A DNA stretch of 63,517 nucleotides, counting the filler, from Folioceros fuciformis (Eukaryota): NCBI GenBank assembly GCA_049999805.1. It is 21 parts of 21 records of this genome, joined end to end, with 100 filler letters (N's around TTAATTAATTAA, not from the genome) between each part and the next. Parts side by side here need not be neighbours in the genome. Positions count along the whole stretch, not along the records: positions 28,381 to 37,846 come from JBNGIO010000358.1; 20 more parts are not named here. One strand, 5' to 3'. The position numbers were made by a program, and so were the translations under genes. Positions 1,670-51,667 of the stretch are shown here, piece after piece. Each line of letters opens with the position of its first letter. Position 1 is the first letter of the stretch. The notes under the pieces are model-generated. The model worked only from the letters and a program-made list of their open reading frames with translations. It had not been told where the DNA came from and made no database searches.

Positions 1670-4063
1670 TTACGGTCGACCCTTACAGCTGCAAGAACCA
1701 GCTGCGAATCGATGTACTCGGTACCCATCCCTTACAACAATATTTCTCTGTTCAAGCCTTGACATTATCTCCGTGGAACTGTGGCAGTCACTGCACATGC
1801 GTAGGTTCTTCGTCACCACCAGAGGTGTCCCACTCGGAGTGTTCAAGAGACCGAACGCCAGAGCTAGCTTCTCAGCATGCCCACAAAGCACATCCTCTTT
1901 TTCCTTCTCACACACTCGCTTCAACACCAAATTTGTGTGTGGCACGTGGCCCCCTTCCAGCTTCAGACGTGCATTCATGCTCTCCAACTTGACTGCAATA
2001 TCATCTCTGTTTTCTCCCACCACAAAAGAGTGTACCGCCTTATTCACCTCAACCGTCGCCACTGCAGGCTTTTTGTTAGCTCCAGCTACCCTCCTCTGTG
2101 TTTCAACCCTGTCTACGTCGGTCCACCTACCTGCATCGGCATAGGCATTGGCCATGAGGACATAGGCTGGAGCCGCCTTCGGATCCAGCCTAACAATGCT
2201 TTCAAAACACGACATCGCCCTTTCAAGGTCCCCGTGACTTTTGGAGGCTGTCAACAAAGATGTCAAGCCCACAACATCACTTTGGACCTCACAAGATAAT
2301 AGCAGCTTCTCTGCGTCGTCTAAATGGCCAGCACGCCCAAGAAGATCAATCATGCAGGTGTAATGCTCAATAGTAGGTTTGATGCCATGCTGTTCAGCCA
2401 TGGAATTGAAGTGCTTGAAACCCTCGTCGACCAGCCCCTCATGACTGCATGCTGCTAGAAGGCAAGTGAAAGTAGCATCATTGGGCTGAATACCGGCAGC
2501 CAGCATATCCTGAAAACAAGCTAGTGCCTTGCGACCTTCACCACAATCGCCATACCCAGATAACATGGCGGTCCACGTCACCACGTTCTTCGTTTTCATG
2601 CCGTCAAAAACCTGGCTTGCAGCTTCCAGTTCACCACATTTTGCATACATGTCCACCAGGCAGGTGCTCACCACAACGTTATCCAGCAGTCCTCTTTCGA
2701 CGATTTGTGAGTGCAGCTGTCTGCCCCTCTGTAAGGCACCAGTGCTTGCACAGGCCTTCACAAGGCAAGCAAAAGTCACATGGTTCGCCAAAACCAGGCC
2801 CGACTCTTCCATCTGTGCATACAACAGCAGAGCCTCTTGGCCGAGTCCTTGCTGCGCATACCCAGCTATAAGGGAGGTCCATGTCACCACATCCTTTGTG
2901 GTCATGCTGGCAAAGGCCTCCCGCGCTTCTTCCAGTTCCCCACATTTTGCGTACCCAGCAATCAGGGCATTCCAAGTCACTACATCCTTTGTGGCCATGC
3001 CATCAAAAACCTGACGAGCATCTGCCATTTCGCCACATTTTGCATACATGTCCAACAGGCAATTGCCAACAAACAAGTTAGTGGGAATGCCACTATACAA
3101 CACATCACTGTGCACTTTTCTGCCGGATTCCAAATCGGCAGCAAATGCACAAGCTTGTAGGGCAGCCACAAAGACGTGGCCATTCGCCTTCACTCCTGAC
3201 CTACGCATGTCATGATACAGTTGTATGGCCTCATTATGTTTCCCATGATTAACATATGCAAAGATAATGGAACCCCACGTTTTAACATCCGGTTTGCCAA
3301 CCCTTCTGAACACATCCATGGCCTCCTTAAGGCTACCGCCACAAGCATACATGCGCAGGATATGGTTCCCCAAGTATGAATTCAACTCGTACCCAAGTTT
3401 GACAGTAAGATGATGAACTCGACGCCCCACAACCAAGTCCTTTCCAGCTGTACACAGTTTCAGCACAGTGCAAAACAGAGATTGAGAAACAGCAGAATCT
3501 GTCTGCACCAGACATTCCAGAGCTCCAACGGCCTCAGAGAGCTTCCCCTGCTGACACAACATGCTCACGGTCACAGCCGTAACGACGCCCATTCCCAAAC
3601 CTCCATGCCTCCCAGGTTCAGCCTCCTCCGGAAAGCCCGACTCGGAAGAAGAAGCACCATGACCCATCTGCATATCCAAAAAAACGAGCTGCTCATCAAC
3701 CCCAGCTGGCTTGAACATGCTATTCAACCACAGCACCTCGCCGGACCCCTTCCGCCGGAAATCAGGCCAATGCGAGCTCTTCTTATCTCGCCTATTATCC
3801 GACCACATTGTAGGATCCCGAAGAAATTGTTGCCACAGGTTCTCCTGCGCCTGGCGCCACCCATCTCTGGAAAATCCATCCGCACTCACACTTGTTCTCG
3901 GAAGCGGAGTTGCTGGGCTCCTTCCACTGCCCCGCCTGGAGGCATGGTTGTTTGCTGTGGCTGGACTCCCTGAAACGAGGTGACCGGGAGCCTCTCGTAG
4001 AATCCCTGTGCCCACACCAATTCGCCGGGTCCATAACGGGTCCGGTTGCCCTACTGAAGCCAT
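1670..4063 (-). CDS. PLS-class PPR protein with N-terminal OSB-like PDF motif, 12 PPR motifs, E1, E2 and DYW:KP (GRP-terminal) deaminase-like domain; putative organellar U-to-C RNA editing factor
   Basis: Intronless ORF (842 aa from 4198; MASVGQ at 4063 taken as the likelier start). Motifs parse as L-S-P-L-S-SS-P-L-S-P2-L2-S2-E1-E2. KKPAVATVEV replaces the PG box, then HAEKLALAFGLL, KNLRMCSDCH and C-terminal CSCKGRP. Confidence 0.95.
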   Translation of the reverse strand: MASVGQPDPLWTRRIGVGTGILREAPGHLVSGSPATANNHASRRGSGRSPATPLPRTSVSADGFSRDGWRQAQENLWQQFLRDPTMWSDNRRDKKSSHWPDFRRKGSGEVLWLNSMFKPAGVDEQLVFLDMQMGHGASSSESGFPEEAEPGRHGGLGMGVVTAVTVSMLCQQGKLSEAVGALECLVQTDSAVSQSLFCTVLKLCTAGKDLVVGRRVHHLTVKLGYELNSYLGNHILRMYACGGSLKEAMDVFRRVGKPDVKTWGSIIFAYVNHGKHNEAIQLYHDMRRSGVKANGHVFVAALQACAFAADLESGRKVHSDVLYSGIPTNLFVGNCLLDMYAKCGEMADARQVFDGMATKDVVTWNALIAGYAKCGELEEAREAFASMTTKDVVTWTSLIAGYAQQGLGQEALLLYAQMEESGLVLANHVTFACLVKACASTGALQRGRQLHSQIVERGLLDNVVVSTCLVDMYAKCGELEAASQVFDGMKTKNVVTWTAMLSGYGDCGEGRKALACFQDMLAAGIQPNDATFTCLLAACSHEGLVDEGFKHFNSMAEQHGIKPTIEHYTCMIDLLGRAGHLDDAEKLLLSCEVQSDVVGLTSLLTASKSHGDLERAMSCFESIVRLDPKAAPAYVLMANAYADAGRWTDVDRVETQRRVAGANKKPAVATVEVNKAVHSFVVGENRDDIAVKLESMNARLKLEGGHVPHTNLVLKRVCEKEKEDVLCGHAEKLALAFGLLNTPSGTPLVVTKNLRMCSDCHSSTEIMSRLEQRNIVVRDGYRVHRFAAGSCSCKGRP

Positions 4064-4614
4064 CGTGCAGGGACCGCGGTCGGCTTGCAAGCCAAATTCA
4101 AGCTTTGAGCAGGCATGCTCTTCAGCATATGAGGTAGGGGATATCTGCCTGAGCAGATTGATTGACAACCTAAACCCAGGTAGATACGTGTCATACATAT
4201 AGGATGAATGTGGAGGAGAATCAACATGAAGGAAGAGACATTTTCATGTGTCAAAAGATCAGACCCAACCTACGAGTTGCTCAACACCAGGAGGGCCAGT
4301 TTACAGGGTTTCAAGGAAGCATGTTCCATTGCAACGGGTGGGCTTGAAACTTGTTGGAGAGCAACAGGTTTAGTGCAAACCTGTTGTATGGCTCCGCGCG
4401 CGTAAATTAGCCGTTCGTTGGACTGTAACACGTGGTCAAAGTATCTTCTTCTTGCCGCAAAGGGCCCAACTGCCATCGGTCTCCATTGGAAACCGATGGC
4501 CCGTGTTTCGTGTTGTCGAGCGATGGCCCGCATCCCCACGGAACGACGGCTGTTCCGCAAGGGCTCGACGGCCCCCAGCCTCAGCTCTGGTAGAGCCCCA
4601 TGGACAATCGACCA

Positions 4615-4714
4615 NNNNNNNNNNNNNNNNNNNNNNNNNNNNNNNNNNNNNNNNNNNNTTAATTAATTAANNNNNNNNNNNNNNNNNNNNNNNNNNNNNN
4701 NNNNNNNNNNNNNN
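4615..4714. other. Artificial contig spacer (first of 20)
   Basis: 100 bp of Ns with a central TTAATTAATTAA (stops in all six frames), repeated identically through the window. Confidence 0.98.
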
Positions 4715-12104: not shown

Positions 12105-12193
12105 CTGCAAGCCATGATGCATTCAGAGGAATTTACAAGTCAGGCAAAAACGTGCCGCAAGAGGGATCCTATCAAACGAACAATCCTGCTTAC

Positions 12194-12480
12194 GAATGCA
12201 CACAGGGTTGGATACTGAATTGCCTCAAGAGCAGTCCTGCCAAAGGAGGAATGCACACAGGGCTGGATACGGAATTGCCTCAAGAGCAGTCCAGCCAAAG
12301 GAGGAATGCACACAGGGTTGGATACGGAATTGCCTCAAGAGCAGTCCTGCCAAAGGAGGAATGCACACAGGGTTGGATACGGAATTGCCTCAAGAGCAGT
12401 CCTGCAAAGGAGGAATGCACACAGGGTTGGATACTGAATTGCCTCAAGAGCAGTCCTGCCAAAGGAGGAATGCACACAGG
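12194..12480 (+). repeat. 55-bp minisatellite, ~5.2 copies
   Basis: AATGCACACAGG recurs at 12195, 12250, 12305, 12360, 12414 and 12469. Confidence 0.95.
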
Positions 12481-14519
12481 AAAAACAGGAAACAGTTTAT
12501 CCTCCGAAATTCAGCATATCATCATCACGGAGACCAATCCAGGCTAGCGAGGAGAGCGCAGGAGAATAAGAAAACAACCTCAGGAAGGCAGCCAAAGCAG
12601 GAGTACTGAACAAACGGCAGTGCAGCATGAACTGTGAAGAACTTGCTCCTTCCCAACTCAATGGAGTGTTAGAATCTGGACGCTCTCATCTACAAGCAGA
12701 GACGCCGTGAGAAAGAGCAGTGCGCAGCCCAATCGGCATAATATGCAACCGATTGCCCGTCGCTCAGTGATGCACATACATGTGAATTAAGGACCTGTGG
12801 TGCAGTGCGCCTAATTAACCATGTTTCTTCGAGTCGCTGGTGACGGGTGGCCTTCGTGCCTCAGCCAGGAAGCCAGATCGCCGCTAATTGCTTCTTCAAC
12901 TTTTTCACACAAAATGCCTGTGATTAGGGTTCCGAGATTTTTCAGCTGTGTCGCATCTGGCAGCCTTCCCTTCCAGATAGGAGGACGCAGGACTGGGATA
13001 CACGAAAGTGGCAAAAACCATGGCAGCAGCAATGGCCATGGCTTGCTCCAGCAGGGCGCTTGCGACAGCTGCACCCTTTCCCGCCTCCAAGCCACTGCTG
13101 CGTGATACGGAGCGGGCCGCTCAAACCGCGTCGTTTGTGCCCCGAGCGGCCAAGAGCGAAGGCGTGGAACCGGACTTGTTTGAAGGCAAGCGCGATCCCT
13201 GGATAACTCTCGGGGAGGACGAGGTGAGCCTACAGTGTCTGCTGTGGTGCACGAGCTGAGCTGAGTGTCCTTAGGCCTTCCCCTTGGTACTGAGCACGGA
13301 TGCTTTTCGACTTGCCGCGGTTTTCAGAGTTTGTTGTCCGCCCTTGGTTGAGTGATTCAGGAGTTGTATTTCCCCTACGGAAAGGCTGATGGAGCACACT
13401 CCTGGCACAAGGGCGACGATGGTGTGTTTTTCGCGTTATTGCAGTCTCCCGAGCAGTGAGTCTCTCTTCGTTAAGCAAGAAGTATTGAGCTGGTCTCTCA
13501 ATGGGGTGGCAGGGACATTTTGGGAAGGCATTGTTGAGGTCTTCGAATCCTCAGGCGGCCCTGTCGGGGTCCAAGGTACTTAGTTGTTGCTACAAGGTGT
13601 GACGAGCTGAGGCTGTGGAGCATGCTTACCTCTTTCGTCTGCTTGTATGCCAGTGTATCCATCTATTGTTTTGTCGCTGGTGCTGCTGTTCAGAACAGCA
13701 GTTTGACATTTTTTCATGTAGGCACAATCTCGTGGCTATATCCCTTGGGAGTATTCGCTGCGTTGTACGCCAATGCGCCAGTAAAGTTCTTAACTCCATC
13801 TGTTTTTCCTATTCACATTGTAGGAACTTGTGTAACTGAGTTTTCTTGCGTTGGATGCAGTCAGAGTTCTACGTGATCTACTCTTCTGTTTTTGTGTGGC
13901 TCTTTATTTCGTTTGAGTTTGCGAAGCCAGACCAGCCGTGGAATTTCGAGCCAGACATGTACTACGATGAGGAGTTGCTCAACGGTGCAAGGGAACCTGA
14001 GCGGCCAGTTGAGAATTCAAAATGAAATTTCCTTGTATAGCCCGTATCGTCGCACATTAAGTCTCTGTTGTTTTGGTCATCTGATTGTAGCTCACCACAC
14101 TGCGGTTCTCGAGTGTTGATCCCCCGGTCAACAGCTGCCTGTCCTGACTTGCTTAGTACTGTCGTCATGTGTACCGGGCATGCATGAGCAATGGGTATGC
14201 GAAAGTTTCCAACAAGTCAGCTGCTTTCGGGGAATACAGTGTGATAGTCTAAAGTAGAAAGGTGGAAGTGTATCAATATTGTAGAGTATATCAGGTCCTA
14301 GAATTACAGATAGGTGAAAAGGTGGTGGTCGAACGACTACGGGCATGGCCCTTTTTGACCAGCAACAGATTGACGTCAGGAAGCGTGTCTCTTTCATTCC
14401 TGACGGTATATACGTGGGTGGCCTCTCAGACAGAGGACTGCCACGAAACACGGGTCTAGCGCCAGCAGATGGGCGTAGCACCGACGAAAAAATGGTTCTG
14501 ACAATCGCTCGCCTTGGAG

Positions 14520-20518: not shown

Positions 20519-23350
20519 TGTTAAAATGAATAGCACGCTAACCCTTAGGGCTCGTTTGGATTTTACGTTTTAGGATCCGATAGGGTACTCAGCAAAAAGT
20601 CATGAACATGCGGTTATGTTTTAGCATAACGTTTGGGCACAGTCCCCATGCTCACAACATTCTGTAGCACATGAACTTATAATCAATCTACCACTACGAT
20701 TTCGTCTCTCGGTCCATCTAACCGCAACATGGTATCAGAGCAGGATCCATCTGACCGCAACATGGTATCAGAGCAGGATCCATCTGACCGCAACATGGTA
20801 TCAGAGCAGGATCCATCTGACCGCAACATGGTATCAGAGCAGGATCCATCTGACCGCAACATGGTATCAGAGCAGGATCCATCTGACCGCAACATGGTAT
20901 CAGAGCAGGATCCATCTGACCGCAACATGGTATCAGAGCAGGATCCATCTGACCGCAACATGGTATCAGAGCAGGATCCATCTGACCGCAACATGGTATC
21001 AGAGCAGGATCCATCTGATCGCAACATGGTATCAGAGCAGGATCCATCTGACTGCAACATGGTATCTGACCGCAACATGGTATCAGAGCAGGACCCCTGC
21101 GCGTCGATCGCCCATCCAGCCAACTCATAAAGCCACATCTTCCATATCTCCATGCCAGGAGACAGAAGGCGTCAGTGCCTTGAAAGAAGAGCACGGCGAC
21201 AAACCGAACACCTAGAAAATCTAAGATCTTGCATAGAGCAGCAAAATCTAAAAGAAGCAAGGCAGAATTTATGGCATTATGGTTGGAACATTACCTGCAG
21301 CGTCCTATTGCTGATTGGAGAAGAACTCTCCCTCAGTGGATACGTGGACGCAAGTGAATATGATTGGGCTTACCTTCAAGTGGAATTCCTCTTCCACCAA
21401 TCATGAAGAAGGAATTTAGCACCACACTGGACATCACTGCCCCTATTTCTCTACCAAATGTCAGAGAGCAACTCACCTCCTATCTTGGATACCTAAGCCG
21501 CCATCACGGCCTCTTCAGACTTCCATCTGCACAAGAAATTGCATATCTCCACAATTCTGTGATAGACAAACTAATCAAATTAGACCAACCACACGCACAC
21601 ATCAAATCTCCCCAACGGACATACAGGATTCTCATCACTATGCACCTAGAAATCACCAGCATAATTAGAAACACTGTGTTCAGTGTTTAGACACCTACAC
21701 AGAACATAAACCAAAAAACAAGACAAAATGAGCTCCTCCATTAGCCTCTCCAAAGAAGACCGCTTCGATGGTCAGCAGCATAACTTTGCTGTATGGAAAT
21801 TCAGGAATTATCCGATATATTGAAGGAACATAAATTCTGGGCCTACGCCGGGGGCATTTGGCAGCCCACCCATCGTTACCGCACACCCTGGTGCATCAGC
21901 CACTGCAACAGAACAGGAGGCATGGGAAAACAAGAATCAGCAGGCGAAAAACGTCATTATGCAATCCATAAGACACAGCAACGTGCAAGAAATCTCTGGA
22001 GCAGAAACAGCAGCCCAAGCATGGACACAACTACATGAAATCTATGCCTCTAATAACATCATGCACATAGTGCATACCCTCAAAAACTTCTTCGGCCTGA
22101 AGATGGGAGAAGGTGATCCCGTCGACAATCACGTCATGCTTTTTCGCAGCTGGACTACCAAGTTTTTCTCTACAGGCTTCACCTTGACAGAGGATTTACA
22201 AGCTGCAATCCTCCTCACCACTTTACCAGAATCGTGGGTAACAGTGGTACAATCTCTACAAGGTGTCAAACCACTCACAGTCAATAAAGTTATCAGCTCC
22301 ATGTTAACAGAGGAAGCACGTAGAAAACTTGCAGCCACCTCAAGTTCAGGGGAGACTTCACATGCCTTCTTCTCAGGCCGCGGCAGATCCAGAGGTAGAG
22401 GCAGACCACCATTTAGAGGACAAAGCTCTCGTGGGAGAGGCGCTTGCACCTACCGAGGCAGAGGCACCTACAACCCAACATGGAAGAAGATCTGCAGTTA
22501 TTGCAAAATACCAGGCCACACATAAGAGGAGTGCAGGAAAAGAATGGCCAATCAGAACCAAAGGTACTTACCTCCCACAGGGCAATTGGCCCTCACAATG
22601 AAGCGTCATTCTAAGGCTTTTCTTACCAGCTGCAGCCCTCCTCTTTCAAACCCCAACCCATCCGCCCTAGTAGCCTCCTGCTTCTCAGCCCATGGATCCC
22701 ATGCCTGGTATATTGACTCTGGAGCCTCACAACACATGACTCCACACATCGAATACTTTACAAATCTGAACCCCATAACCTCAAAACAATTTGTCAGTCT
22801 GGGAGATGACACCCGACACCCCATTCAGGGATATGGTTCAGTACAATTGGCCCTACAGCCCTCTACTTCCTTACAAATATTAGACGTCCTTCACGTACCC
22901 AGTTTAACCAAAAACCTCTTCTCTGTCCGAAAGGTAGATGAATCCGGATGTTATATATGCTTTGGCCAAGGCCGCTGCGTAATCGAGTTTCCACAAGGGG
23001 AAGTATTGGTCACAGGCGATTTAAGAAGCGACGATCTGTATCATCTGAACACATCCACTCCACCCGTTCCTTCCCTTACAGCCAGTACATAGAAAAACCA
23101 ATCCTACCTATGGCATGCCCGACTTGGGCACATGCACCTTCAACGAATGAAAGATACAATTTCAACAACAGCAGCTACTAGCATTCCTCTTACCAAGGTG
23201 GAGGATTTTGGCCCATGCGAAGCATGCACTTTAGGGAAGAGCCACCATACTCCTTTCCCCAAGGGCCCTACCACAAGAGCCACCAACAAATTACAACTGG
23301 TGCATTTGGACCTCTGTGGTCCCTTTAAAAGATCTCTCCACAGCCATTTA
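20519..23350 (+). mobile_element. Ty1/copia element: 5' LTR (20519-20729), amplified PBS, extra 5' ORF, gag-PR-integrase start; decayed
   Basis: TGTT...AACA LTR. gag starts at 21728 (KEDRFDG..NFAVWKFR), with zinc knuckle CSYCKIPGH, protease WYIDSGAS, and integrase CEAC...LVHLDLCGP. Confidence 0.9.
20713..21093 (+). repeat. 33-bp tandem array of LTR 3' end + tRNA-iMet PBS
   Basis: Unit TCCATCTGACCGCAACATGGTATCAGAGCAGGA. TGGTATCAGAGC occurs at 20730+33k (k=0-9), truncated at 21060 and full at 21078. Confidence 0.97.
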
Positions 23351-23453: not shown

Positions 23454-23553
23454 NNNNNNNNNNNNNNNNNNNNNNNNNNNNNNNNNNNNNNNNNNNNTTA
23501 ATTAATTAANNNNNNNNNNNNNNNNNNNNNNNNNNNNNNNNNNNNNNNNNNNN

Positions 23554-24027
23554 GAACGTCCCCACGGCTCCGCACCCGTGCGTCACGAACCGGTTTCCAG
23601 CCGCTACCGCGAAGGGCGAGGAGGCGGCGAGGTCGAGATCCAGCCTCGAGCTCCCAGTCCGGTTCGACCCGGCGCAGGTCGGAGGCGCCACCAGCCACTC
23701 GTTGCCCAGCAGCACCCACGCCTCCTTCACGTCCAGAGCCAGCACCTGGAACGGGCCGGATTTCGTGTCCAGCAACGGCCCAGTCACTGCGTCGCACCGG
23801 ATGACGAGGTCCGGCAGGCCCGAGCTCGCCGTGCTCCCGTTGCTGCCGCCGCCGCACCCGGATCCGGGTCCGGATCCCGATCCATTTCCTTGTAGACTGA
23901 AGGGGAAGGGAATTGTGAGCTTGCCGCACACGCAAGGAGCTGCAGTGGAAGCGGAAGAAGCACGCCTGGCTAAGACCCAAGCCCAAGCCAGGAGCAGCAC
24001 GATGGCCGCAGCTCGGACATCCACCAT
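23554..24027 (-). CDS. Wall-associated kinase-like protein, signal peptide + GUB_WAK-like ectodomain start (3' truncated)
   Basis: MVDVRAAAIVLLLAWAWVL signal, then CGKLTIPFPF...GCG...IRC...FQVLAL...SPFAVAAGNRFVTHGC. Confidence 0.75.
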
Positions 24028-24131
24028 CCTCTGCTCATGCCTCCTCCTGCTGCTCTCCGTTCCGCGATGCAGGTGACTGTTTCCGGCAAGCAAGCCGGCC
24101 CCCCGGTGACGAGGGTCATTGACCCTTCCCT

Positions 24132-24291
24132 TCCTGTGTCCGCCTCGTCTGAAAGGCCGCTTGCTAGGAAACGCGGCCCAAAGTGTCTGGCCTCCTCTCC
24201 TGTGTCCGCCTCGTCTGAAAGGCCGCTAGCTAAGAAACGCGGCCCAAAGTGTCTGGCCTCCTCTCCTGTGTCCGCGTCGTGTGAAAGACCG
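24132..24291 (+). repeat. 66-bp tandem repeat, ~2.4 copies
   Basis: TCCTGTGTCCGC recurs at 24132, 24198 and 24264. Confidence 0.9.
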
Positions 24292-25733: not shown

Positions 25734-26882
25734 TTAGGCTGAAGTAGGCATAGAGAACACCCTTAGCCCTAGGGCTGCAAGGTGCTTGTTGTGCTTTGGC
25801 TTACTCAAGCCTTTTGTAAGAATATCAGCCACGTTGTTGTCAGTGCTGACATACTCCACTTTTACTATGCCTCTTTCAGCCACATATCGAATATAGTGAT
25901 GATAAAGCTCGATATGCTTGGTTCTCGCATGAAAACGAGGGTTGGAGACCAAGGCTATGGCAGACATGTTGTCGCAAAACAGCAGAGTTGGCCTTTGCTG
26001 AGGTAAGTGCACAGCATCTAAAAATTGCCGTTCTCATTCTAACTCCTTGCATGCATCTGTCAGGGACTTATATTCGGCTTCAGTCGAAGACAAAGCAAGG
26101 GAAGTCTGTTTCTTACACGACCAGTTAACGGCCCCTTGAGCTAGCAAGAACACATGGGTAGAAAGGCTTTTCCTTGTGTCCGCATCCGACGCCCAGTCGG
26201 CATCAGCAAAAGAGGACAGGTGAAATTCCCTCCTGCCAGTGCTTGTATAGTGCAAGCCATATTGCAAAGTCCCTCGAAGATAGCGGTATATTCGTTTGAC
26301 AGCACCCCAGTGGGCCTTGCCAGGTGCTTTCAAGAATTGGGACACAACACTAACAGAGTAGCTGATGTCCGGACGTGTCCAATTAGCAAGGAAGATCAAA
26401 CATCCTACAGCCTCAGCATAGCGAACACCAGTCATCATAGCCTCGTCAACGGCATCCTGTGGTGACTGCTCCAAGGTCAGTTTTTCCCCCACTGCTGTAG
26501 GTGTTGATACAGACTTAGCAGAGTCCAAATTAAACCGTTTGAGGATCTCGTTAATGTATTTAGTCTGATGGCCCCTTGTGGTCTGTCCCGTAGAATCTGT
26601 ATCCCAAGGCAGAACGCAAGGGGGCCCTGATCCGTCATCTCAAACTCAGATCTTAGCAGAGATTTAACCTTATCCAATTGAGCAGGATGATTACTTAACA
26701 GGATTGCATCATCAACATATAGCGCCAAGATGACAAAGAGCCCATCAGACTCAAGATAAAACACATTGGAGTCAGCAGGTGATTGGACAAACCCATGCCT
26801 TTTAAGGAATTTCATTATCCTCTTGTACCAAGCACGAGGGCTTTGCTTGAGCCCGTATATGGTTTTTAGCAACTTACAGACT
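25734..26882 (-). mobile_element. Ty1/copia RT-RNase H fragment (disrupted)
   Basis: YGLKQSPRAW, LYVDD, FADADWA, SSTEAEY, ADILTK. Contains a frameshift and a premature stop. Confidence 0.95.
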
Positions 26883-27164
26883 NNNNNNNNNNNNNNNNNN
26901 NNNNNNNNNNNNNNNNNNNNNNNNNNTTAATTAATTAANNNNNNNNNNNNNNNNNNNNNNNNNNNNNNNNNNNNNNNNNNNNCCCCGATCCGGTGCCCGC
27001 GGTCGGGGCTGGCCGCGATTCGGCGCCCTCTACATCCGTGCCCCGTTTGCACCGGCGCTCCGAGCGTCTCGTGCTCCTCCTAAATGTCGCATAACGTCCA
27101 GTTCACTCCGATGCTGCCATCACTCCAAAGCCTCTGCGCACCATCACCCTTGCTCCACACCCAA

Positions 27165-28005: not shown

Positions 28006-28380
28006 ATTTTTCCACCGCTGCCTCCCCGTCCACCTTCAATTTCCCTGGCTAGTCGGCCACCCCAGGCGGCCCCAACTCAACCAGCCGCTGCCAACCTGCC
28101 ATGTGCCGACAAGCCGGCCTCCTACCAAAATCCGCCTTCCCCTCTGGCCCGGTTTCTCCCCAGCTAGCCGCCAGGTGGCTGCGTGGCTTCGGGGATCCAG
28201 CCCTGCTAACCCTAAACCCCCCTAGCAGATCCCGTCACCTGCAGCCCGTCTTGGTTGCTTGCCTACACCCTGTCTTCCCCNNNNNNNNNNNNNNNNNNNN
28301 NNNNNNNNNNNNNNNNNNNNNNNNTTAATTAATTAANNNNNNNNNNNNNNNNNNNNNNNNNNNNNNNNNNNNNNNNNNNN

Positions 28381-31230
28381 ACAAAAGTGGCTCCACTCAT
28401 CAAGGAAAGAGAGGAAGTATACTGCTCTCCAAAGGACTGTGTCGACATAGGTCCACAAACATCGGAATGAATTACCTCAAGCAAAGAAGTAGCCCTTGTT
28501 GGAGAAGGGTTGTTATACGGTTTTTGGGTAAGTTTCCCTATTTGGCAGCTTTCACATAAGAGGGTAGGGTCGGTTTTAAGCGTAAAACCATCCTTATACA
28601 AGTGTGCGTTTTGTGCTACCCGATCAACATAAGCAAGACTTGGATGACATAATCCACATTGCCATAGGCAGGTAGTGCTAACTTCTGGATTAGCATCTGC
28701 AACGTGAACTTGATGTGTGTTAGGTTGACAGTTGCCTTGTGTTACGATCAGGTGATAAAGGTCATGGTATGGTGAGCCATTGGCTAAAACTAGAGAAGGT
28801 TGTGAAGCTGGGGAAACTACACAATTTGTGGGAGTGAAAACGACTTGTAGACTATGGTCACAGGTGAGCTTATGGACTGACAGCAAGTTCTTAGTCATTT
28901 GAGAAACATGTAGAACTCCCTTCAACAGTATGTTGTATCTATGGTTGAGTCCTAGTTTAACATTGCTAGTCCCTTGAATAGAGAGTCCATTGTCGTCTCC
29001 TAACAAGACCAATTGATTTGTTGTATTAAGGGAGTATGTACAAAACATGTCCTACGAGTGGCAGATGTGGTTGGTCGCTCCAGAGTTCAAAAACCACATG
29101 TTTCTGTTTGCCTTGGTAAGTGACAGACACACTGCTAGTATAGCTGGTGTCTTATTGTTGGTACTTGCTGTTGTAGATTGTACAACCACATTAGTTTCAG
29201 CTGCAGGTCGATGTGCTTTGCCTGATTGTTTTTTGCAGCACTCACTCTCAAAATGCCCTGGGATCCTGCACCAGTTGCATGGTCCTTTCACTCTCCAGGG
29301 AGTGAAGGAATTCTGTGGTACTGATTGTCCACTATAGGGACGTCAAGGTGCAGAGAAGTATCCTCGGCCTCGACCCCTACCTCGACCATGAGAGGTAAAC
29401 AACACGTGCTGTTGATTAGAGGAGGAGGGTCTTCCAGCTCCTATTCTGCTAGATTCCTCCTCCAACAAGGCACCCATTACCTCTGACAGAGTAATAGTGG
29501 AGCCTAATTGTCAAAGCAAGGTAGATTGAGAGCTGACAAATGTCCGATAACTTGCTGGCAGGGATGTTAGAAGAACAGTGGCAGCCTTCAACTCAGTCAG
29601 GGTCTCTCCAGCGGCTGCTAAACGTGCTCCCAAGGTCCGAAACCGATGAAGGTGATGTTCCACTGTTTCACTTTCTTTCATTCGAAGAGAATAGAATATT
29701 CGAGTGCAGTTAATAAGTGACATGGAATCTTTAGCAGCGAACATGTCATGGAATACTTTCCAAACATCGTGTGCGACATGTGACTTGTCCTTGTGTATGT
29801 TGCATCATGTTTTTGTCAAGTGCTGAAAGTTATATATTCCTTGCCTTTTTGTCTTTCTTGTGCCATGTTGCAATTACATTCACGGCACTTCGTCCTACAG
29901 AAGGTGTTGGATTTGTGGTAGGGGCTGCAAGTGAACCGTCCACAATATCCATAAGCTCATGCTCTTCAAGAATTGCAACCATTTGCATCTGCCAGACTGC
30001 AAAATCGGTGGCATTAAACCCGTCCCTGTCTTTGAAGGCGATCTTAATAGACATTTTAATAGTGATAAGTGATGGTGCATTAGCTAAATTCTCCTAAACG
30101 GGAGATTGACTCAGTGCTATGACATACTACTGTAGGTAACCAACTAAGAGGATACCATACAGGACTAATAGTTTTTAGTTGAAAAGTGTAGCAAGTCCTA
30201 TGAGGACTGACTCTACACGTTTAGGTATAGAAGAAAAAGAACTCAAGTTTTCTGGTTCAGGTAGGGGAGAATAAATCTTATCTGGAGCTTGAGAAGTGGA
30301 AGGCATGTTGCAAACATAGGAGGCAGATTGATCATTGAGTGTGACTGATTCTGCTTTGATACATGTGCCAAAAACATAGGTATGCACAAGTGTTGACAAC
30401 TGTTTGACCTTCTCTTCAAGTTGATTTATCTATTTCCTAAGCATTATGTTTTCAATTTTGATCCTTCGCTGGGAATCATGAGTATGTTCTTCTAAAGCTT
30501 GAATCTTATAGAGGATTGGTTCTATATGTTTAGGCACTAAGTAAGCGACCTATTTATGCTCTCTGAAGTGTGATTGATGATCCTATTGCCTGGATATATG
30601 TGCAAGATAGGATTTTTCTCTAAAAGGGAGACAGGGGGTGCAGCAAATGCAAGAATTGTTATAGCCAGTAACAATGTGAGATGACCTATGATTTACTTGG
30701 CATCTACAATATAGCCAGTAACAATGTGAGATGACCTATGATTTACTTGGCATCTACAATATAGCCTGTAACAATGTGAGATGACCTATGATTTACTTGG
30801 CATCTACAATATTCTGCTACAGCAATTCTTTGTCATTGCTGCGCTAGGCTATCGTAAACTCGAAAGCATTGTAGGGTTAAGTGAGGAGGAATCTTGGTAT
30901 GAAAAACTGCATAGCACGCCAACGGCGGTAGACAATTTGGATTATTCATCCAAACAAAAGGATGAGTGACTTGCTGTCAAAGAATGTCTCACACTAGCGC
31001 GCCAAGTAGATGATCATAATAATCTTACAGCTTTGATACCATAAACGATTGGAAGCACACATCGCGACATGTAGAACAGGAAGTTGTAACCGTTTCGTAA
31101 TTAGGAATTAATTTAAACTACTCGCTAATCCAGCTAGAATAAGCTTGCCGAATATTTCACATTTGGACTGAACTAGTGATATTGATAATATCTCAATAAT
31201 TAGGATTCCTGGACAAGGTGTCGGCATTCT
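28381..31230 (-). mobile_element. Ty1/copia element A: LTR remnant, PBS (31030-31041), upstream coding extension, gag, PR, integrase N-terminus; decayed
   Basis: PBS TGGTATCAAAGC; gag FKDRDGFNATDFAVWQ; CNWCRIPGH; WFLNSGATNH; CESC...IHSDVCGP. Confidence 0.9.
30661..30812 (+). repeat. 50-bp tandem repeat x3 in the leader of element A
   Basis: ATAGCCAGTAACAATGTGAGATGACCTATGATTTACTTGGCATCTACAAT occurs three times (1 mismatch). Confidence 0.95.
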
Positions 31231-31231
31231 A

Positions 31232-31460
31232 GTGTTTCGCGCCAGGCCTGTGCACCACATTGAACTCATAATCTTGCAAGATCATAGCCCATCTTACCAG
31301 CTTACCACTGAGCTTGGTGCTCGTCATCAGCCACTTGAGAGGCTAGTGATCTGTCACCAATGTAAAGGGCTTCCCGAACAGATATGGGCAGAAATGGCAA
31401 ACAGCGCACACGGCCGCTAAGCATTCCCCATGCTATAGTTGGCCTCCACACGGCTATTGA
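31232..31460 (-). mobile_element. Ty3/gypsy RNase H fragment between two divergent copia 5' ends
   Basis: GECLAAV...YLFGKPFTLVTDH*PLKWL...RWAMILQDYEFNVVHRPG. Confidence 0.85.
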
Positions 31461-32759
31461 TATTGGAATGGTATTTAAAGAGCAAACACTAACTCATTAT
31501 TACCAAGCAGTATAAGGGTTAGTATAACGATTAATTAGTATGTTTATATACGTTAGGTTAAAACGGTTACAAAATACTCTTTTAATGTTGTTTCTTTTTC
31601 ATACACTCAAGTCGTTACTCTCTTTGTGCGCCTCTCCGGTGCTCGTGTGCTCACACCTGCTTTCTACGATTGGATCCTACATGATGCAATAGCTCACTCC
31701 AATACATTATGGTATCAAAGCCAGATCGCCGCCAGCCATTTGGCATTTCCAGCAGCGCCAAGAATGTGGTATCCAACGCATTGCGAACAATGGAGAAGAC
31801 TTTATCCAGTTTCGCTACTACCAATGACTACACAGTCCTGGACAGAGACACAACAGATAGCATAATCCAAAATGCTGCGAGAACACTAGAGATCATTTTC
31901 GAATTGGAAACATATCCAGTGTCATCATCTCTGAACACTGCACCATGACTAGGAACAATAAGAGACGGTTCAAAAGGACATCTTGTTCTAGTCCTATAGC
32001 ATGCCCTCACACACAATCGCTTTGTTGTTATCAGGAGACTGCTCCTATTTCATCTTGTTCTTATCACACCACACATAGAACACTTAGTAAAGGCACCTGT
32101 CAGACCCCGGCATTACTACGCGATTTATGCAATCTCAGAACCACACTCACCGTGTTGAAGCATACTGCATCTGCTGACAAGTTAAAGCATAGGAAAGAGA
32201 TCCAAAACTTGAAAGAACAAAACGATTATCTGGTTAGGAAAGTTCACTACTTCTACCGCTTGTATGAAGATATCATTACTAACAATGATGCTCAACATCA
32301 AGCTGCAATTTTTGCATATGTGCCTTTCGGTAAGGCTAATGATGGATATGTGGATTTTCTAGTCACAACATCCATGAGATCGTGCTCCTCAAAGATGGAC
32401 TCCATCCTCAGTTCCCAGATTGAGTAATCAGTCATGTTGAATATGTCTTTGTCCTTTATGTCAACTTTGAATGTGTTATTAATCATTGTGTTCATTGAGC
32501 TTGTTCCAGCCCCAGACATGTTGTGCGGCTGAGGGTTCCTAAGTGCTAAGCTAAAGTGTAGTGGATTTTCAGGGATCTTATGTGGTGGTGACCACATCAA
32601 CTATGCAAACTTGGAAACAGACTTATAGAGAATGGTGAGCTCCTCACCAAATAGCTTAGCAAGTGATGTAAGTACATGCTCAATGGGTTCAAGCAGATGC
32701 TTGCTGACAACGTGAGGGGATGATGCTTTGCTAACTGGGGTGCTAGGTGTAGCATCATT
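31461..32759 (+). mobile_element. Ty1/copia element B 5' end: LTR, PBS (31710), upstream ORF; 32293-32750 is inverted and contains the gag start
   Basis: LTR termini TATTGGA/TCCAATA; PBS TGGTATCAAAGCC; minus-strand gag KVDIKDKDIFNMTDYSIWELRM; AATGATGCT is inverted at both breakpoints. Confidence 0.8.
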
Positions 32760-32789
32760 TTGCCCTTGCCGAATAGACCACCTAGCAGG

Positions 32790-35250
32790 GGCTTGCTCCA
32801 GCTCTTCCGCTTCGTGACACATCCCTGAACATGAACAACATGAACACATCCAAACAAACCCTCAGTTAGCATCCCAGCAGCAACCACAACAAGTAAGTCA
32901 TCAAGAACCAGAGGTAAACCCCCACCAACCTGTAGCCCATCTAGTTCCATTTCAGCCTCTCCTCCAAGATGTACCGACTCTCAGGCAATCATCAAGGAAC
33001 AAGCCACCAAGAGAAGAATGGAAGGATCCTCCCTACACACCTGGAGACACACTGATTGGCAAAACTCCTCCTTCAGCAGAACCCATACCTACAGACACGC
33101 AAACATAAGTGGATCAATTGCATCTCATTATGCACAAGGCATACTCAGCCATTGAGATGCAAGGAGTTCCCCCAACAATCGAGGAAGCCCTCCGCACACC
33201 TGAATGGAAGGCAACAGTTCAATCAGAGTACGATTCACTCATCTCAAACAAAACTTGGATTCTTACTGATCTACCACATGGTAGAAAGCCCATTTCTTGC
33301 AAATGGACCTTCCGAAGGAAGCTCAATCCCAATGGAAGCGTCTCACGACACAAAGCAAGCCTGGTAGCCTGTGGATTTACACAAATCCCAAGCTTCGACT
33401 ACGAAGAGAGCAAGCTCTTCAGCCCAGTGGTAACATCTATTAGGATCCTCTTGGCTTTTGCTGCATTGCACAAACTTGACATCCATTAGGTGGACATCAA
33501 AACAGCTTTCTTGTATGGAACCCTACACGAGGAGATATACATGCTGCAGCCGCCCGGATTCGTCAAGGACCATCAAAAGGTCTGCAAGCTGCTAAATTCA
33601 CTCTACGGTCTCAAACAATTAGCACAGGTCTGGAATGAGACAGTCGAATTGTACCTCAAGAAATGTGGCTTCACACCCCTCTCAGCTGACTCAAGTGTAT
33701 ACATGCTAAGGACTGACAAAGATAAGTACGTCATCGTTACCTTGTACGTGGATGATAATTTCATCTTCGGTACTGACCCACAACTGATCCAACATGTTAA
33801 GAATTTGCTCACCAAAGAATATGAGGTGGCGGACATGGGCACCCTAAGGTACGCCCTAGGAGTCCAGTTTGAGAGGAGCATAGATGAGCACTCCTTTTTC
33901 ATACACCAAGAGCACTACGTCTAGCAACTCCTCACCAGGTTCAACCTGAAAGATGCGAAACCAGTATCCACTCCCATGGCCACAAGACAAAAGGTATCAG
34001 CCTTAGACAGCCCAATAACACCTGAGCAGACAATAGAGATGGCAAATGTGCCCTACAGTGACGCTGTAGGAAGTTTACTCTACATCGCCCAAGCTGTGAA
34101 CGTGGCATCGAGGTACCTTTCAAACCCCGGCATGGCCCACTGGACCTACGTGAAGAGAATCCTGCGTTACCTAAAGGGAACAAAGTCACGTGACATAGCA
34201 TACAGAGGTGATTACAGTACCCAGAAGTGCCTACTGACCTCCTTCTCAAATGCTGACTGGGCAGGCGACCTTGACACCTGCAAGTCCATCTCCGCATACT
34301 GCATGATGATAAACACAAGCGCTGTCTCCTGGGCATGCAAGAAAATGCACACAGTACACCTGTCATCAACAGAGGCAGAGTATGCAGCCACATCCCTGGC
34401 CGCAAAAGAAATACTCTGGATCCGCCAGTTCCCGCACAATATACACGAAGATCAGGAACAACCTACAGAGTTGCAGTGCGACAATCAGTCAACCATCACC
34501 ATGACGTTAAACCCTATTCTACACGCAAGAACAAAGCATGTGGAGATCCAGCACCACTTCATCCGACAAGTGGTGGCTAACAAATACGTAAAGCTTAGGT
34601 ACGTGAGCACAATTGAGAACACAGCCGACCTTTTGACGAAGGGACTCACAAAGCAACTCCACTTCAAGCACGCGCAAGGTATCGGCTTACTCAAGAAGGA
34701 GACTTATCTTGAGGCCGCCCAGCAGCCAGAGGCAGAGGGAGCACTTGCAAGAGCGACATCGTCAGACGAACAATAATCAGTTGTCCGGCAAGGGTTGCCC
34801 AATAGCAATCTTAAACCTCTCAGTTCTCACGCCTGCATCCTTCTACACACGTCCAGGCACAGCACCAGCTCCACATCGCTTCTTCCGCAACTTGGGCCTT
34901 GGAGCTTCGGTCCGCTCGAGACTCTCCACTCCCTCACTTATGAGCTGGATGATGCAACTCGCGAGCTGAAGCAACCACCACAGGCCAGAGAGAACGCACA
35001 GTAGAAACTACACACAAGCATGTGCCAAGGAAGACATCCTCCCTAGACTGAAGCCTCTTCCACACACTCCTTGTCCGTGGCAAGGGGGAGTGTTGTCACC
35101 ACTAAAGATGCGCCGACGAAACGAAGGGCAAATACATAAGTAATTTCAGCAGTTATAAAATACTGTTAAGATAGTTAAGACGGTTTAATTGCTAACCAGG
35201 GCTGTATATAACGAGTCCACAAGCAATCATAAATCTATCTTTCCGCTTCA
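32790..35250 (+). mobile_element. Ty1/copia RT-RNase H, PPT and complete 3' LTR (35090-35250)
   Basis: DIKTAFLYG, YGLKQ, LYVDD, NADWAGD, ADLLTK; PPT AAGGGGGAG, then TGTTG...CTTCA. This LTR does not match the LTR of element B. Confidence 0.92.
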
Positions 35251-36800
35251 AGTTTCTAAACCTCTTTTGGCGCCACATCCTTTGTTGGTGAATAACGCGT
35301 GAGTGCTAGATGGGGTTGCCCTGTGATTCATGGGCCTGCTGGATTCTTCCTCTAGGAGAACCGCAACTACCTCAGTGAATGTGTAAGTAGATGGCTGTCC
35401 TACTGCAGTTGCCTGGATTGCCGCTCGAATTGCCGAGTTTTGTGCACTAATGAATGTTCTGTATATGGAAGGCAAGGAAGTTAGGAGAGGGATTAGAAGA
35501 TAACGGTACCTCTTGAGGCTAGCTTTGCCCTGAAGGATTGGAACACATTCACATGTTGTTCCACCGTATCCGACTCATTCATTCTCAGGGAGTAGAATTG
35601 CCTAGTCGCATTAATGAGGGACATGCTGCTTTGGGCTTGGAACATGCCTTTAAAGGTCTTCCAGACTGCGTGGGAGGAAGTTTGGCCACTAGTGTGTTGA
35701 AGCATGCTTTTGTCAATAGCACAGATGAGGATGCTTATGGCACGTTTGTCCTTCTTAGACCAAGCTGCGATCTGGTTAGCAGTTGCAGGTGAGGTAGATG
35801 TGGTAGTCGGTGAGGGGATTGTACCATCAACGATACCCATGAGGTTGTGTTCTTCTAGCAGCGCAGTGATGCACATCTGCCAGATTTCGTAATCGCTTCC
35901 CGTGAAGCGATCTCTATCTCGAAACTCTACTTTGGTTGTATTGACGATGCTGGTGGCCATTGCTATGCGATTTACAAGACGGGTGAGTCTTTTAGCAAGC
36001 AAGTTTGTAGTATGCTGACCTAGTGGATTGAAGCGAGGCATACACTTGTTCAGAGTGCTTCTGATTCATTATGGGTGTGTAGAGGTAGATTGGAGATGGC
36101 AACGAGAAGTGCCTCCATTTGTGACTTGATCAGTACTAGCTAGCTCTTAAGGTAATCCTCGGAGGAGATTTCTGGATTGCGAAGCACTTGGGAAGTTGTG
36201 CTGCTACGGCGTGCAGGTAGGACTGTCACTCTGTGAATTCTTGAGAAATTTCTTGCTTCAAGAAGGTGGTCAGGTTGAGTGACAAAGGTGTCCCCATGGC
36301 AGGCGCAAAATCGCTCTAGTGGTGGCATTGCTAATCGTGCGCAGCAAGACTGTGTAAAAGCATTCCTACTCAGGGAATTCCTGCTCGGGGCATAGCTTGC
36401 AGGGGTGCGGCGCCGAGGCATCGTAGATGGCTTAGGAATGTTGAAGGTTGCCTTTGTTGCTCCGGGTGTGCGCCATGTCGAGTGGCTAAGGAGAGCTAAG
36501 GAGAAACGCGAGGCGCGTGCACGAAGCTAGACGGGGCATGACTCCTTCGCTCTGATACCATAAAAATGAGCCAAAGCTTTTGAGAAAAGGATAATCTACA
36601 TTGATAATGAAGGGGTATTTATACAATGGATTATTGCAGTTATAACTGCCGGTTCTTAATAACTAACTCTAAGTCTAACTGCCGAGGTAAAACTTGGATA
36701 ACTGCTATTTATTGAATTTAAGTATTAAATTAATTATCCACACATGTAAACTATGCCCTTAAGTGCTGCTTCCAGTGTAGTCGGCGCATATGTCACAACA
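35251..36800 (-). mobile_element. Ty1/copia element C 5' end: LTR (36561-36800), PBS (36549-36560), upstream ORF remnant, gag
   Basis: Perfect PBS TGGTATCAGAGC; gag KVEFRDRDRFTGSDYEIWQ, related to the gag of elements A and B. Confidence 0.9.
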
Positions 36801-37846: not shown

Positions 37847-38357
37847 NNNNNNNNNNNNNNNNNNNNNNNNNNNNNNNNNNNNNNNNNNNNTTAATTAATT
37901 AANNNNNNNNNNNNNNNNNNNNNNNNNNNNNNNNNNNNNNNNNNNNTGGTAAGGTCCGAGCACTGGACGTGTGTGTGTGGGTCAGTCGAGCTTTAGGTGT
38001 TAATTGACTTTAGAAGCTAACCTGTGTAGTTTAACTTAAATCATTCCCTTGGGATCGAATCCCAGAGCTACAACAACATAGAGGGCTTGTGTGGACCTCG
38101 CGGTACCCCCGGGTACCATATTTTAACCCCACATAGGGCGATTAGAATATCCTGGAGCTTCATCCACCTATCTGCAAGATTGCTTGCATCTGCACGCCAC
38201 ACGCAGGTCTTGGGTCCTTGTGTGACTGTAACAGAACTGATACCCTCCCTGTCCATGTATTGCAGCTCCTGAAGTGTCATAGGAGTGGAGAGGCGTAATA
38301 CAGATCATCAATGAACACCAAGGTACCAAGATCTCACCCATAAGCTGATCATCATGG

Positions 38358-49886: not shown

Positions 49887-51667
49887 AGACTCAGATCTCC
49901 TGTGAGACTCCTGTTCAGCAAGGTCTGGAATTCAGCTCGAAACTCGTTACCCTGGTCTATGAGCACCTATGCGCAGCTCCCAAATCTGCTGAGCACACAC
50001 TGTAGAAAGGCTCTGCTAGTGTAATGCAAAGTTCTCTGTGGCAAGAAGGCTACCTCAACCCACTTAGAGAAGTCCTCAATCATGACCATGCAATGTCGGT
50101 TACCTTGCTTCGTGAGAGGAAGCTCTGGCATAAGATCAACCGACCATCTGAAAAATAGTCCTATGATTGGTAGGGAGTGCAACATCACATTGTGGGTGTT
50201 GAATATGGCTTTGACTGTGTCACATATAGCAAACTTAGCCACCACCTTCTCAACATCTGCATACAACCTTGACTAGAAATACGTATTCTTCAACATGTGG
50301 TGTGTCCTCTTCACACCAAAGTGGCCAAGGGTTTCGTGCACTTTAGTCACCATCCCAACCCTTTCCTCATGGCTTGGAACTTTCTTCACGAGCTCTCCCT
50401 CTGATAGCGGCAACTCACCATTTCTCCATGAGTATTTGGCCACGCACCTCCTGAGCTTAGCCAAGCCTGCTTCAGTGATTCCAGGCATTATGCTTTCCTT
50501 CAGCAGCTGTAGGGCTTGAGGATGTCTCCACACATCCTTGACAGACTTTGTCAACACCTGTCCTTCTTCATGCTCATCGGTCCCGGCGATGAGTGCCATG
50601 AAGCTATTGGGTGCACCATTTATGTGCCCCTCATCCTGTCGAGCTCCTGTGACATCCTTGTCACTCTCCAGTGGATTTTTGCTTAGCCCATTTGCATTGT
50701 GATGCACCTTGCTTGCCTTGTGCACGACCTCCATATCGTACTCAGATACCAGCAGCACCCACCTAGCTATCTTACCACTCAATTTCATATTGGTCATCAG
50801 CCAATGTAATGGCTAGTTATAAGTGACCAATTGAAAATGCCTTCCATACAGATAAACCCTAAAATGTAGAACTGCCCACACTGCAGCAAGACACTCTCCC
50901 TCATATGAGAAGTAGTTCACTTCATCAGAGTTGTTAGACCGGCTTGCATAAGCCATAACTCATTCAACACCATCTATACCATGCTATAACAACACCGCTC
51001 CAATTCCCGCAGTGCTCCAATTTGTGTACAAAGTGAAAGGAAGATCAAAGTCCGGCCTAGCCAACATAGGCTTCTCCACCAATTGATCCTGCAGATCCTG
51101 CCAAGCCAGCTCCTAGTCTTGGTCCCATTTCCACGCAACGTCCTTCTTCAACAGCTCATACAGAGATTTACAAGTGGAACTGATGTCCATCATAAACCTC
51201 CTGTAATAGTTCACCAACCCCAGGAATGCTCTGAGAGCAGCTACATCCTTTGGCCTAGGCATCTGCATCATCGCCTGCACCTTAGCCAGCTATGGCATAA
51301 TGCCTCCGGGCACTATCTCATGCCCGAGATACTTGATCTGTTGGAAAGAAAACTTGCATTTCTTAGGATGAGCTTTCAAACCTAAGCTAGACAACCTCTG
51401 TAGCAATATCTCCAGATGATCCATATGCTCTTCGATTGTCTCACTGAAAACCATGATGTCATCTATGTAACAATGCACAAATGGCAGCCCCTGTAGCTCT
51501 AGATCCACAACTCTCTGGAAATATATGGAAGCATTCTTCAGCCCAAACGACATCGTCTCCCACTCCCAAGGCTGGTCCTTCCCCCCAAAGGCTGTCTTGC
51601 ACTTATCCTACTCTTCAATTACAATTTGGTTGAAGCCTGAGCAAAAATCCAAGCTGGTAAAGAATTT
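49887..51667 (-). mobile_element. Ty3/gypsy RT-RNase H-integrase fragment
   Basis: MSFGLKNA, CYIDD, KYLGH, RWVLLVSEYD, GHFG, SKWVEV in gypsy order RT-RH-IN. Confidence 0.93.

Follow-up and report, generated by a model that had tools for sequence, protein, structure and literature searches.

Extra open reading frames (ORFs) are common in plant long terminal repeat (LTR) retrotransposons, evolve fast and have functions that are almost wholly unknown; the 5′ cases that have been studied belong to Ty3/gypsy. A survey with a minimum ORF length of 250 codons found an extra ORF in 582 of 5410 copia and 3372 of 8453 gypsy elements; the ORFs were highly heterogeneous (45 groups in copia), and the only lineage-typical copia extra ORF named in the available text is the 3′ ORF of SIRE (PMC6317226). 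According to the same text, that survey left out any ORF that is joined to the polyprotein in some copies (PMC6317226). The 5′ additional ORFs of Tekay-type gypsy elements encode nuclear-localisation-type basic stretches, helices and disorder, and their function is not known as far as the accessible accounts go (PMC11728184, PMC7264820). In a narrow literature search covering partial texts, we came across no copia lineage for which a 5′ coding stretch in frame with gag has been described. Here we analysed a 63,517-nt stretch of the Folioceros fuciformis genome (assembly GCA_049999805.1; hereafter the window, with all coordinates counted along the whole stretch), in which three decayed, related Ty1/copia families, elements A, B and C, each have a remnant between the primer-binding site and gag. 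We consider it moderately likely that this leader is a decayed, lineage-specific protein-coding region in the gag frame.

A domain scan of the window found decayed, mosaic-like Ty1/copia pieces and some gypsy pieces. A pattern scan placed the primer-binding sites of the three carriers at 31030–31041 (− strand, TGGTATCAAAGC) in A, 31710–31721 (+) in B and 36549–36560 (−) in C, each with at most one mismatch to TGGTATCAGAGC, which we take to be the complement of the tRNA-Met 3′ end, the type of site sought for Ty1/copia. The gag ATG follows at a distance of 600–1000 nt (approximately 980 nt in A, 600 nt in C). The carriers were assigned to Ty1/copia by their domains, for which a copia-type Gag followed, in order, by protease (PR), integrase (INT) and reverse transcriptase (RT) was sought. 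In A, Pol_BBD and gag_pre-integrs were found at 28332–29051 (−), with RVT_2 downstream at 26480–26926 (−). In B, RVT_2 (33109–33921) was the sole domain of the PR-INT-RT set that was matched, because B is a deleted copy. No 3′ LTR partners of A, B or C were found within the window.

The gag N-termini of the three elements were located by translation at 29830–30054 (−) in A (MSIKIAFKDRDGFNATDF..., with the ATG at 30054–30052, MSIKIAFKDRD...) and at 32301–32519 (−) in B (73 codons, MSGAGTSS). In C, gag lies in an open frame of 190 codons (35496–36065, −), 35 of which stand upstream of the gag ATG (35960) and are contiguous with gag; this frame matched Pfam Retrotran_gag_2 at 1.4e-24. The three N-termini form one group with 42–51% identity and pairwise similarity scores of 116–184 (A scored 184 with C and 118 with B), whereas A and B scored 21–77 against four other copia gags in the window. 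Since the three cluster together, the leader feature tracks a lineage.

The clearest open frame was found in element B. Its first part comprises 116 open codons (31945–32292, +; MTRNNKRR...ITNNDA), with a basic, Cys/His-rich N-terminus followed by a long predicted helix, and is succeeded by an inverted block (32293–32759, −). The block is bounded by inverted 9-nt copies of AATGATGCT, one at 32284–32292 (+) and the other, reverse-complemented, at 32751–32759, and the open frame crosses the shared word. The second part of the extension lies within the block (32604–32750, −) and comprises 49 codons including IEHVLTSLAKLFGEELTILY, followed by a TAG at 32603–32601. The minus-strand translation of 32798–32280 reads ...NDATPSTPVSK...IEHVLTSLAKLFGEELTILYKSVSKFA*...MSGAGTSS. 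Because the frame runs through a block bounded by inverted copies of one word, we conclude that the block was inverted and that re-inversion at 32750 is right. The restored reading consists of 116 + 49 = 165 codons and the TAG, after which a further 27 codons lead to the ATG of gag at 32519; it reproduces the reading proposed in the initial annotation of this DNA, which carried the re-inverted frame into gag across one TAG. The candidate start ATG of B lies approximately 220 nt past the primer-binding site, and its context (ATGAC.A.GAA) is common to A (MTKN) and B (MTRN).

The rearrangement of B is complex and occurred at microhomology, combining a 467-nt inversion (32284–32759) with a deletion from approximately gag codon 73 to the integrase end. 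After gag codon 73 the element jumps to the end of integrase and RT, and it has lost PR, most of INT and the remainder of gag. The pol remnant extends from approximately 32760 (+) and has two internal stops in approximately 555 codons of one frame (33109–34776), a rate comparable with that of the B leader.

Stop codons were compared with first-order Markov simulations of the same stretches (n = 4000). The B leader, read in the gag frame over 196 codons, contains a single stop where 10.3 ± 3.1 would be expected, and none of the 4000 simulations had as few. The other five frames contain 2–12 stops per B piece. Even as B stands, without re-inversion, its longest open run is 144 codons, a length reached in 5 of 1000 simulations over six frames. 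B was the only element in which the leader frame was open beyond chance.

The leader of element A, read in the gag frame, comprises 202 codons with six stops (30055–30660, −), compared with 12.4 expected (125 of 4000 simulations as low) and 13–20 in each of the remaining frames. Translated on the minus strand from 30660, the leader yields exactly the string quoted in the initial annotation and joins gag at its ATG, and the stops are, as was claimed, all TAG or TAA (five and one). A candidate start ATG (MTKN...) is located at 30834–30836 (−), in a context like that of the B start; in this copy it is out of the gag frame, as its distance to the gag-frame reading (30836 − 30660 = 176) is no multiple of 3. 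Between the two lies a tandem repeat (30660–30812, no strand assigned; 50 nt × 3.1, 99% matches), each unit of which shifts the frame by 2.

Element C was a third carrier. In the gag frame its leader (35961–36476, −) starts MAHTRSNKGN... and contains eight stops, and a further leader frame of 128 codons, +1 relative to gag, is open at 36143–36526 (−). The gag-frame reading is similar to B part 1 at 36470–36303, and the +1 frame further on (approximately 36310–36052) resembles the gag-frame reading of A. Since the B-like and A-like parts are consecutive, C is consistent with a collinear arrangement interrupted by two frameshifts. In A, B and C alike, the final block of the leader shares the frame of gag, and in C it enters gag without a stop over 35 codons. 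This third carrier makes the observation somewhat better supported than the author of the initial annotation could know.

Similarity among the leaders was scored by Smith–Waterman protein alignment and tested against shuffled sequences (n = 300; n = 200 for frame pairings) and against 400 real segments of the window. The score between B part 1 and C, both in the gag frame, was 72, and it was reached by 0 of 300 shuffles and 0 of 400 real segments. The gag frame of A and the +1 frame of C scored 58 (z-score 5.2 against 200 shuffles; 0/400 real segments), and A and B part 2 scored 48 (0/300 shuffles, z 4.2; 1/400 real segments). The last value bears out the motif E.VL..LA.LF...L..LY, which had been proposed as shared by A and B. 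These similarities depended on the frame. For A and B part 2, z was 4.1 with both in the gag frame, 1.3 with both shifted by one base and 0.3 with both shifted by two; for B part 1 and C it was 6.4 in the gag frames, and for the A gag frame with C shifted by one base it was 5.2, with matching wrong-frame pairings at z ≤ 1.5.

At the nucleotide level, the alignments of the same three pairs (A with B part 2, B part 1 with C, A with C) showed no similarity (z −0.7, 1.0 and −0.5), so that the amino-acid similarity was found in one frame without nucleotide similarity, as is looked for in coding sequence. Identities by codon position were 0.60/0.70/0.30 and 0.45/0.56/0.25, a split that is partly built in by aligning amino acids. 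The sole significant nucleotide-level patch spans 45 nt of A and B and coincides with the coiled-coil motif (z 5.2); in it, a TAG of A is aligned with a GAG of B. The nucleotide alignment backs the pairing RK*I/RKEI, and the register given for this motif in the initial annotation was rejected. A tblastn comparison at E ≤ 10 linked B and C weakly (E 0.14) and did not link A and B, and tblastn found nothing similar to the leader stretch elsewhere in the window.

The predicted product of the B leader has a distinct layout. Its first 60 residues contain nine Lys + Arg against two Asp + Glu, with six Cys and three His. AlphaFold2 run without an alignment on B part 1 gave a mean predicted local distance difference test (pLDDT) score of 52, with residues 1–65 below 50 and helices at 55–74 and 79–114, the latter with block pLDDT values of 80–89. 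A crude contrast of the heptad a/d positions gave 0.68 for A residues 65–92 (7 of 300 shuffles) and 0.62 for B residues 83–110 (17 of 300 shuffles), and pointed to the same motif in both elements.

The initial annotation had likened this layout to the viral cysteine-rich silencing suppressors, an analogy for which we found no support. The suppressors of hordei-, tobra-, peclu- and carlaviruses resemble the leader product loosely, in having a basic Cys-rich N-terminus followed by a heptad-like helix; this comparison is an analogy only. They differ from it in that a Pfam search at E ≤ 1 matched no viral Cys-rich silencing-suppressor family and returned chance-level rows only (HSL_N, CpG_bind_C, Bac_small_YrzI), and in that Cys positions are not kept between elements: of the six Cys in B, two stand opposite a Cys in the part of C that aligns, and a conserved Cys/His zinc-site spacing was not found.

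Sequencing data were searched for further copies. Two DNA runs of the same organism contain the A stretch, and in each of them approximately 180–200 contig pieces match at 80% likeness, from which it follows that paralogous copies exist. Of 758 differences between copies, 40 chosen by ranking were examined. At codon 77 of A, the third of its six stops, all contigs of other copies shown in the two DNA runs have a Gln codon; the aligned B residue is Glu. The proposal that the A stops are deaminated Gln codons therefore agrees with every contig shown at this one codon, in a sample much too small to test it. One run, presumed to be RNA, matched with two short pieces, both on unrelated repeat parts. 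Over 29500–33500, a third DNA run of the same sample differed almost exclusively by C>T (133 places) and G>A (205 places), a bisulfite-like pattern from which the methylation of these elements could be read.

Several observations weigh against a coding leader. The stop depletion of A is marginal, and its leader has a stop every ~34 codons compared with open runs of 126–240 codons in A pol. The gag frame of C is not depleted at all (eight stops in 172 codons against 6.7 expected; 3051 of 4000 simulations as low), unlike the gag of the same element, which has no stop in 190 codons. The coiled-coil motif ExxxL[RK]xQxxxLxxKV, claimed in the initial annotation as shared by A and B, failed as a protein motif, the score of A against B part 1 (31) being at chance (115/300 shuffles, 97/400 real segments). 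Correction for the 45 frame pairings that were tried leaves the scores of 48 and 58 borderline, but not that of 72. In A and in B alike, the candidate start comes after four other ATGs, and in A the candidate ATG does not share the frame of the gag-frame reading, an offset to which the 50-nt repeats contribute. Codon-usage log-odds favoured the gag frame only weakly, and they discriminate poorly because antisense frames score equally high. Among the 40 examined differences between copies, nine fell in 30055–30660 (four synonymous, four at first and one at second codon positions), too few to test.

No relatives of the leader were found in protein libraries. B part 1 had no phmmer match at E ≤ 0.001 among 1.84 billion representatives; Pfam, PHROGs and the PDB sequences returned chance-level rows and no leader homologue; and the best value in the ESM Atlas was 0.89, under its 0.9 line, with no family. 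Of these blanks, those from phmmer, Pfam, the PDB and the ESM Atlas are further points against coding. Scans of viral contigs with C gag and B part 1 gave no matches. A metagenome locus for B part 1 was rejected as chance, the shared word YEDIITNN lying in a 703-residue ORF on a phage- or bacterium-like contig. The libraries hold few relatives of these elements in any part: the RT of B matched 14 proteins at E ≤ 1e-10 with 28–45% identity, the named ones from angiosperms, and a word-index search of longer proteins with the C gag ORF gave 0 of 589 candidates at 1e-5. With a best RT identity of 45% and C gag unmatched, the lineage is hardly represented in libraries, and the blanks say little. 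Four full-length RT-matching proteins had no similar N-terminus.

The initial annotation had proposed an N-terminal Gag extension or upstream ORF. The open frame of B, the frame-specific similarity and the one A stop that is Gln elsewhere speak for this proposal; the marginal depletion of A, the undepleted frame of C and the missing homologue speak against it. A non-coding 5′ leader with RNA signals (packaging, dimerisation, translation control), in which the open frame of B and the motif matches arose by chance or composition, is a serious rival, though we regard it as improbable. It would account for the many stops in A and C, the several upstream ATGs and the lack of a homologue or domain; the 45-nt patch shared by A and B might represent an RNA element, and tandem repeats, which occur in leaders of the window, are typical of non-coding parts. 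Against it stand the stop depletion of B, unmatched in any simulation, and a similarity that is confined to particular frame pairings, is not nucleotide-level and exceeds nulls drawn from real sequence. An RNA signal would moreover predict conservation of nucleotides or structure, whereas here amino acids are kept and third positions are free, with the caveat on codon-position identities given above. That an ancestor of this copia lineage captured the fragment from some other mobile element or a host gene, and that it was then retained without any role for the element, appears very improbable. Gene capture by LTR retrotransposons is described in the accessible part of the literature (PMC7264820), but we found no match to a host-type protein or domain and nothing similar elsewhere in the window; occurrence at the same place in three families with gag N-termini as divergent as these argues for long retention and against capture.

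If the leader is coding, its product could have been a separate protein, from a 5′ extra ORF ending before gag (in B at the TAG 32603–32601), with gag reached by reinitiation or leaky scanning. The stop falls at nearly the same place in two families, 8 codons after the ...LY block in B and 10 codons after it in A, and the 52-codon upstream ORF of B (31790–31948, +) ends with its TGA overlapping the ATG of the long ORF at 31945 (ATGA). Such an overlap can couple termination to reinitiation. Translation of gag by reinitiation or leaky scanning has been proposed for the 5′ additional ORFs of some Ty3/gypsy lineages, and the available texts describe a class of extra ORFs situated before gag (PMC6317226, PMC11728184). 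A separate ORF is, on the other hand, hard to square with the frame, which is that of gag in A and in B, and with the last block of C, which enters gag without a stop, although a shared frame arises by chance in one of three cases per element. The A and B stops also fall in different alignment columns, and two further nearby A stops must in any case be decay. We judge a separate ORF unlikely, yet to be kept in view as an account of the whole leader; between the two modes of expression, fusion to Gag is somewhat more likely.

On the coding interpretation, the region in the best-kept copy, B, would begin at the ATG approximately 220 nt after the primer-binding site and encode approximately 165 residues, its end being separated from the gag ATG by 27 codons of that frame. 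The product would consist of a basic, Cys/His-rich and probably disordered N-terminus, a long heptad-like helix and a conserved hydrophobic block ([VI]E.VL..LA.LF...L..LY). Intact ancestors most likely made an N-terminal Gag extension from the upstream start, the TAG of B being decay, and RNA binding or particle assembly would be the most plausible role. The sequences themselves show the frames, the stops and the similarity; translation, fusion to Gag and function of the leader product are what we infer from them. A bolder proposal, that a copia lineage of spore-bearing plants carries a hitherto undescribed accessory module (basic Cys/His head, coiled-coil stalk, conserved hydrophobic tail) that is fused to the N-terminus of Gag and has been selected across families, seems to us quite improbable; if true, it would equip these elements with a function over and above that of Gag-Pol, for instance in counteracting host silencing or in directing particle assembly or targeting.

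Other features of the window are as follows. A full 5′ LTR was recognisable in neither A nor B. Between their head-to-head primer-binding sites, at 31150–31430, lies a minus-strand fragment (...RPGAKH.NADTLSR) that is 67% like 50758–50887, which adjoins an ORF for a gypsy-type integrase zinc domain; its contig depth of 513 was by far the highest of the compared stretch (approximately 20–140 otherwise). At 20647–21141 (+), a 33-nt tandem repeat of approximately 11–13 units has the full tRNA-Met primer-binding-site word TGGTATCAGAGC in each unit; as the repeat sits upstream of another copia gag (21824–22522), it is the primer-binding site of that element that was multiplied. Further tandem repeats are found at 12139–12517 (+; ~55 nt × 6) and 24127–24258 (+; 66 nt × 2). 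Runs of 44 N, paired and 12 nt apart, occur at 40 places in the window (for example 4615–4658, 28281–28324 and 37847–37890) and break several retrotransposon frames, among them the pol of A. An intact frame of 857 codons (1673–4243, −) encodes a pentatricopeptide repeat (PPR) protein with an E motif and a DYW deaminase domain, of the type of organelle RNA-editing factors; among named proteins, those of the lycophyte Diphasiastrum and the ferns Adiantum and Ceratopteris came closest, with at most 53% identity among the 120 matches listed. The host, probably a spore-bearing plant, is thus hardly represented in the protein libraries either. An open frame of 239 codons (23509–24225, −) weakly matched the galacturonan-binding domain of wall-associated kinases (E 1e-4, below the Pfam cut-off).

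The leader was compared with the described 5′ extra ORFs of plant LTR retrotransposons, as far as these are covered by the accessible texts. It shares with the eORF-5′F class of REXdb and with the Tekay 5′ additional ORFs (5′aORFs; Retrosat-2, RIRE3/8, sunflower Tekay group 2) its position on the forward strand between the primer-binding site and gag, and it lies, as the definition of eORF-5′F has it, between the 5′ LTR or primer-binding site and the polyprotein in the same orientation (PMC6317226). The definition also requires at least 250 open codons (PMC6317226); the longest run here is 144 codons in B, or 165 with the pieces joined. The Tekay 5′aORF proteins and the leader product are alike in being lineage-specific and fast-evolving and in having no known domain, and the former have basic stretches, predicted helices and long disordered parts, as does the predicted leader product (PMC11728184, PMC6317226). 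The characterised 5′ extra ORFs in these texts belong to Ty3/gypsy, whereas the leader is found in copia, is shorter than 250 codons and is in the gag frame. Since such a leader would fall under the length threshold of the survey and within its exclusion of fused ORFs, comparable cases may be systematically missed, to judge from the available text (PMC6317226).

With three decayed copies, the leader is a lead rather than a result. If real, it is a conserved 5′ gag-frame coding stretch in Ty1/copia elements of a poorly sampled plant group, and it would add a copia case, possibly a Gag-fusion case, to the extra ORFs of plant retrotransposons. A precedent for fusion is the glyco-Gag of murine leukaemia virus, a form of Gag with an additional N-terminal part whose translation begins upstream in the same frame. 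The leader has no sequence relation to glyco-Gag, and its fusion to Gag would have to be assumed for ancestral copies, given that stops separate leader and gag in A and B, with none over 35 codons in C, and that all three copies are decayed. By analogy, the two are alike in arrangement: Gag would be lengthened at its N-terminus by initiation within the leader, at a start that shares the gag frame.

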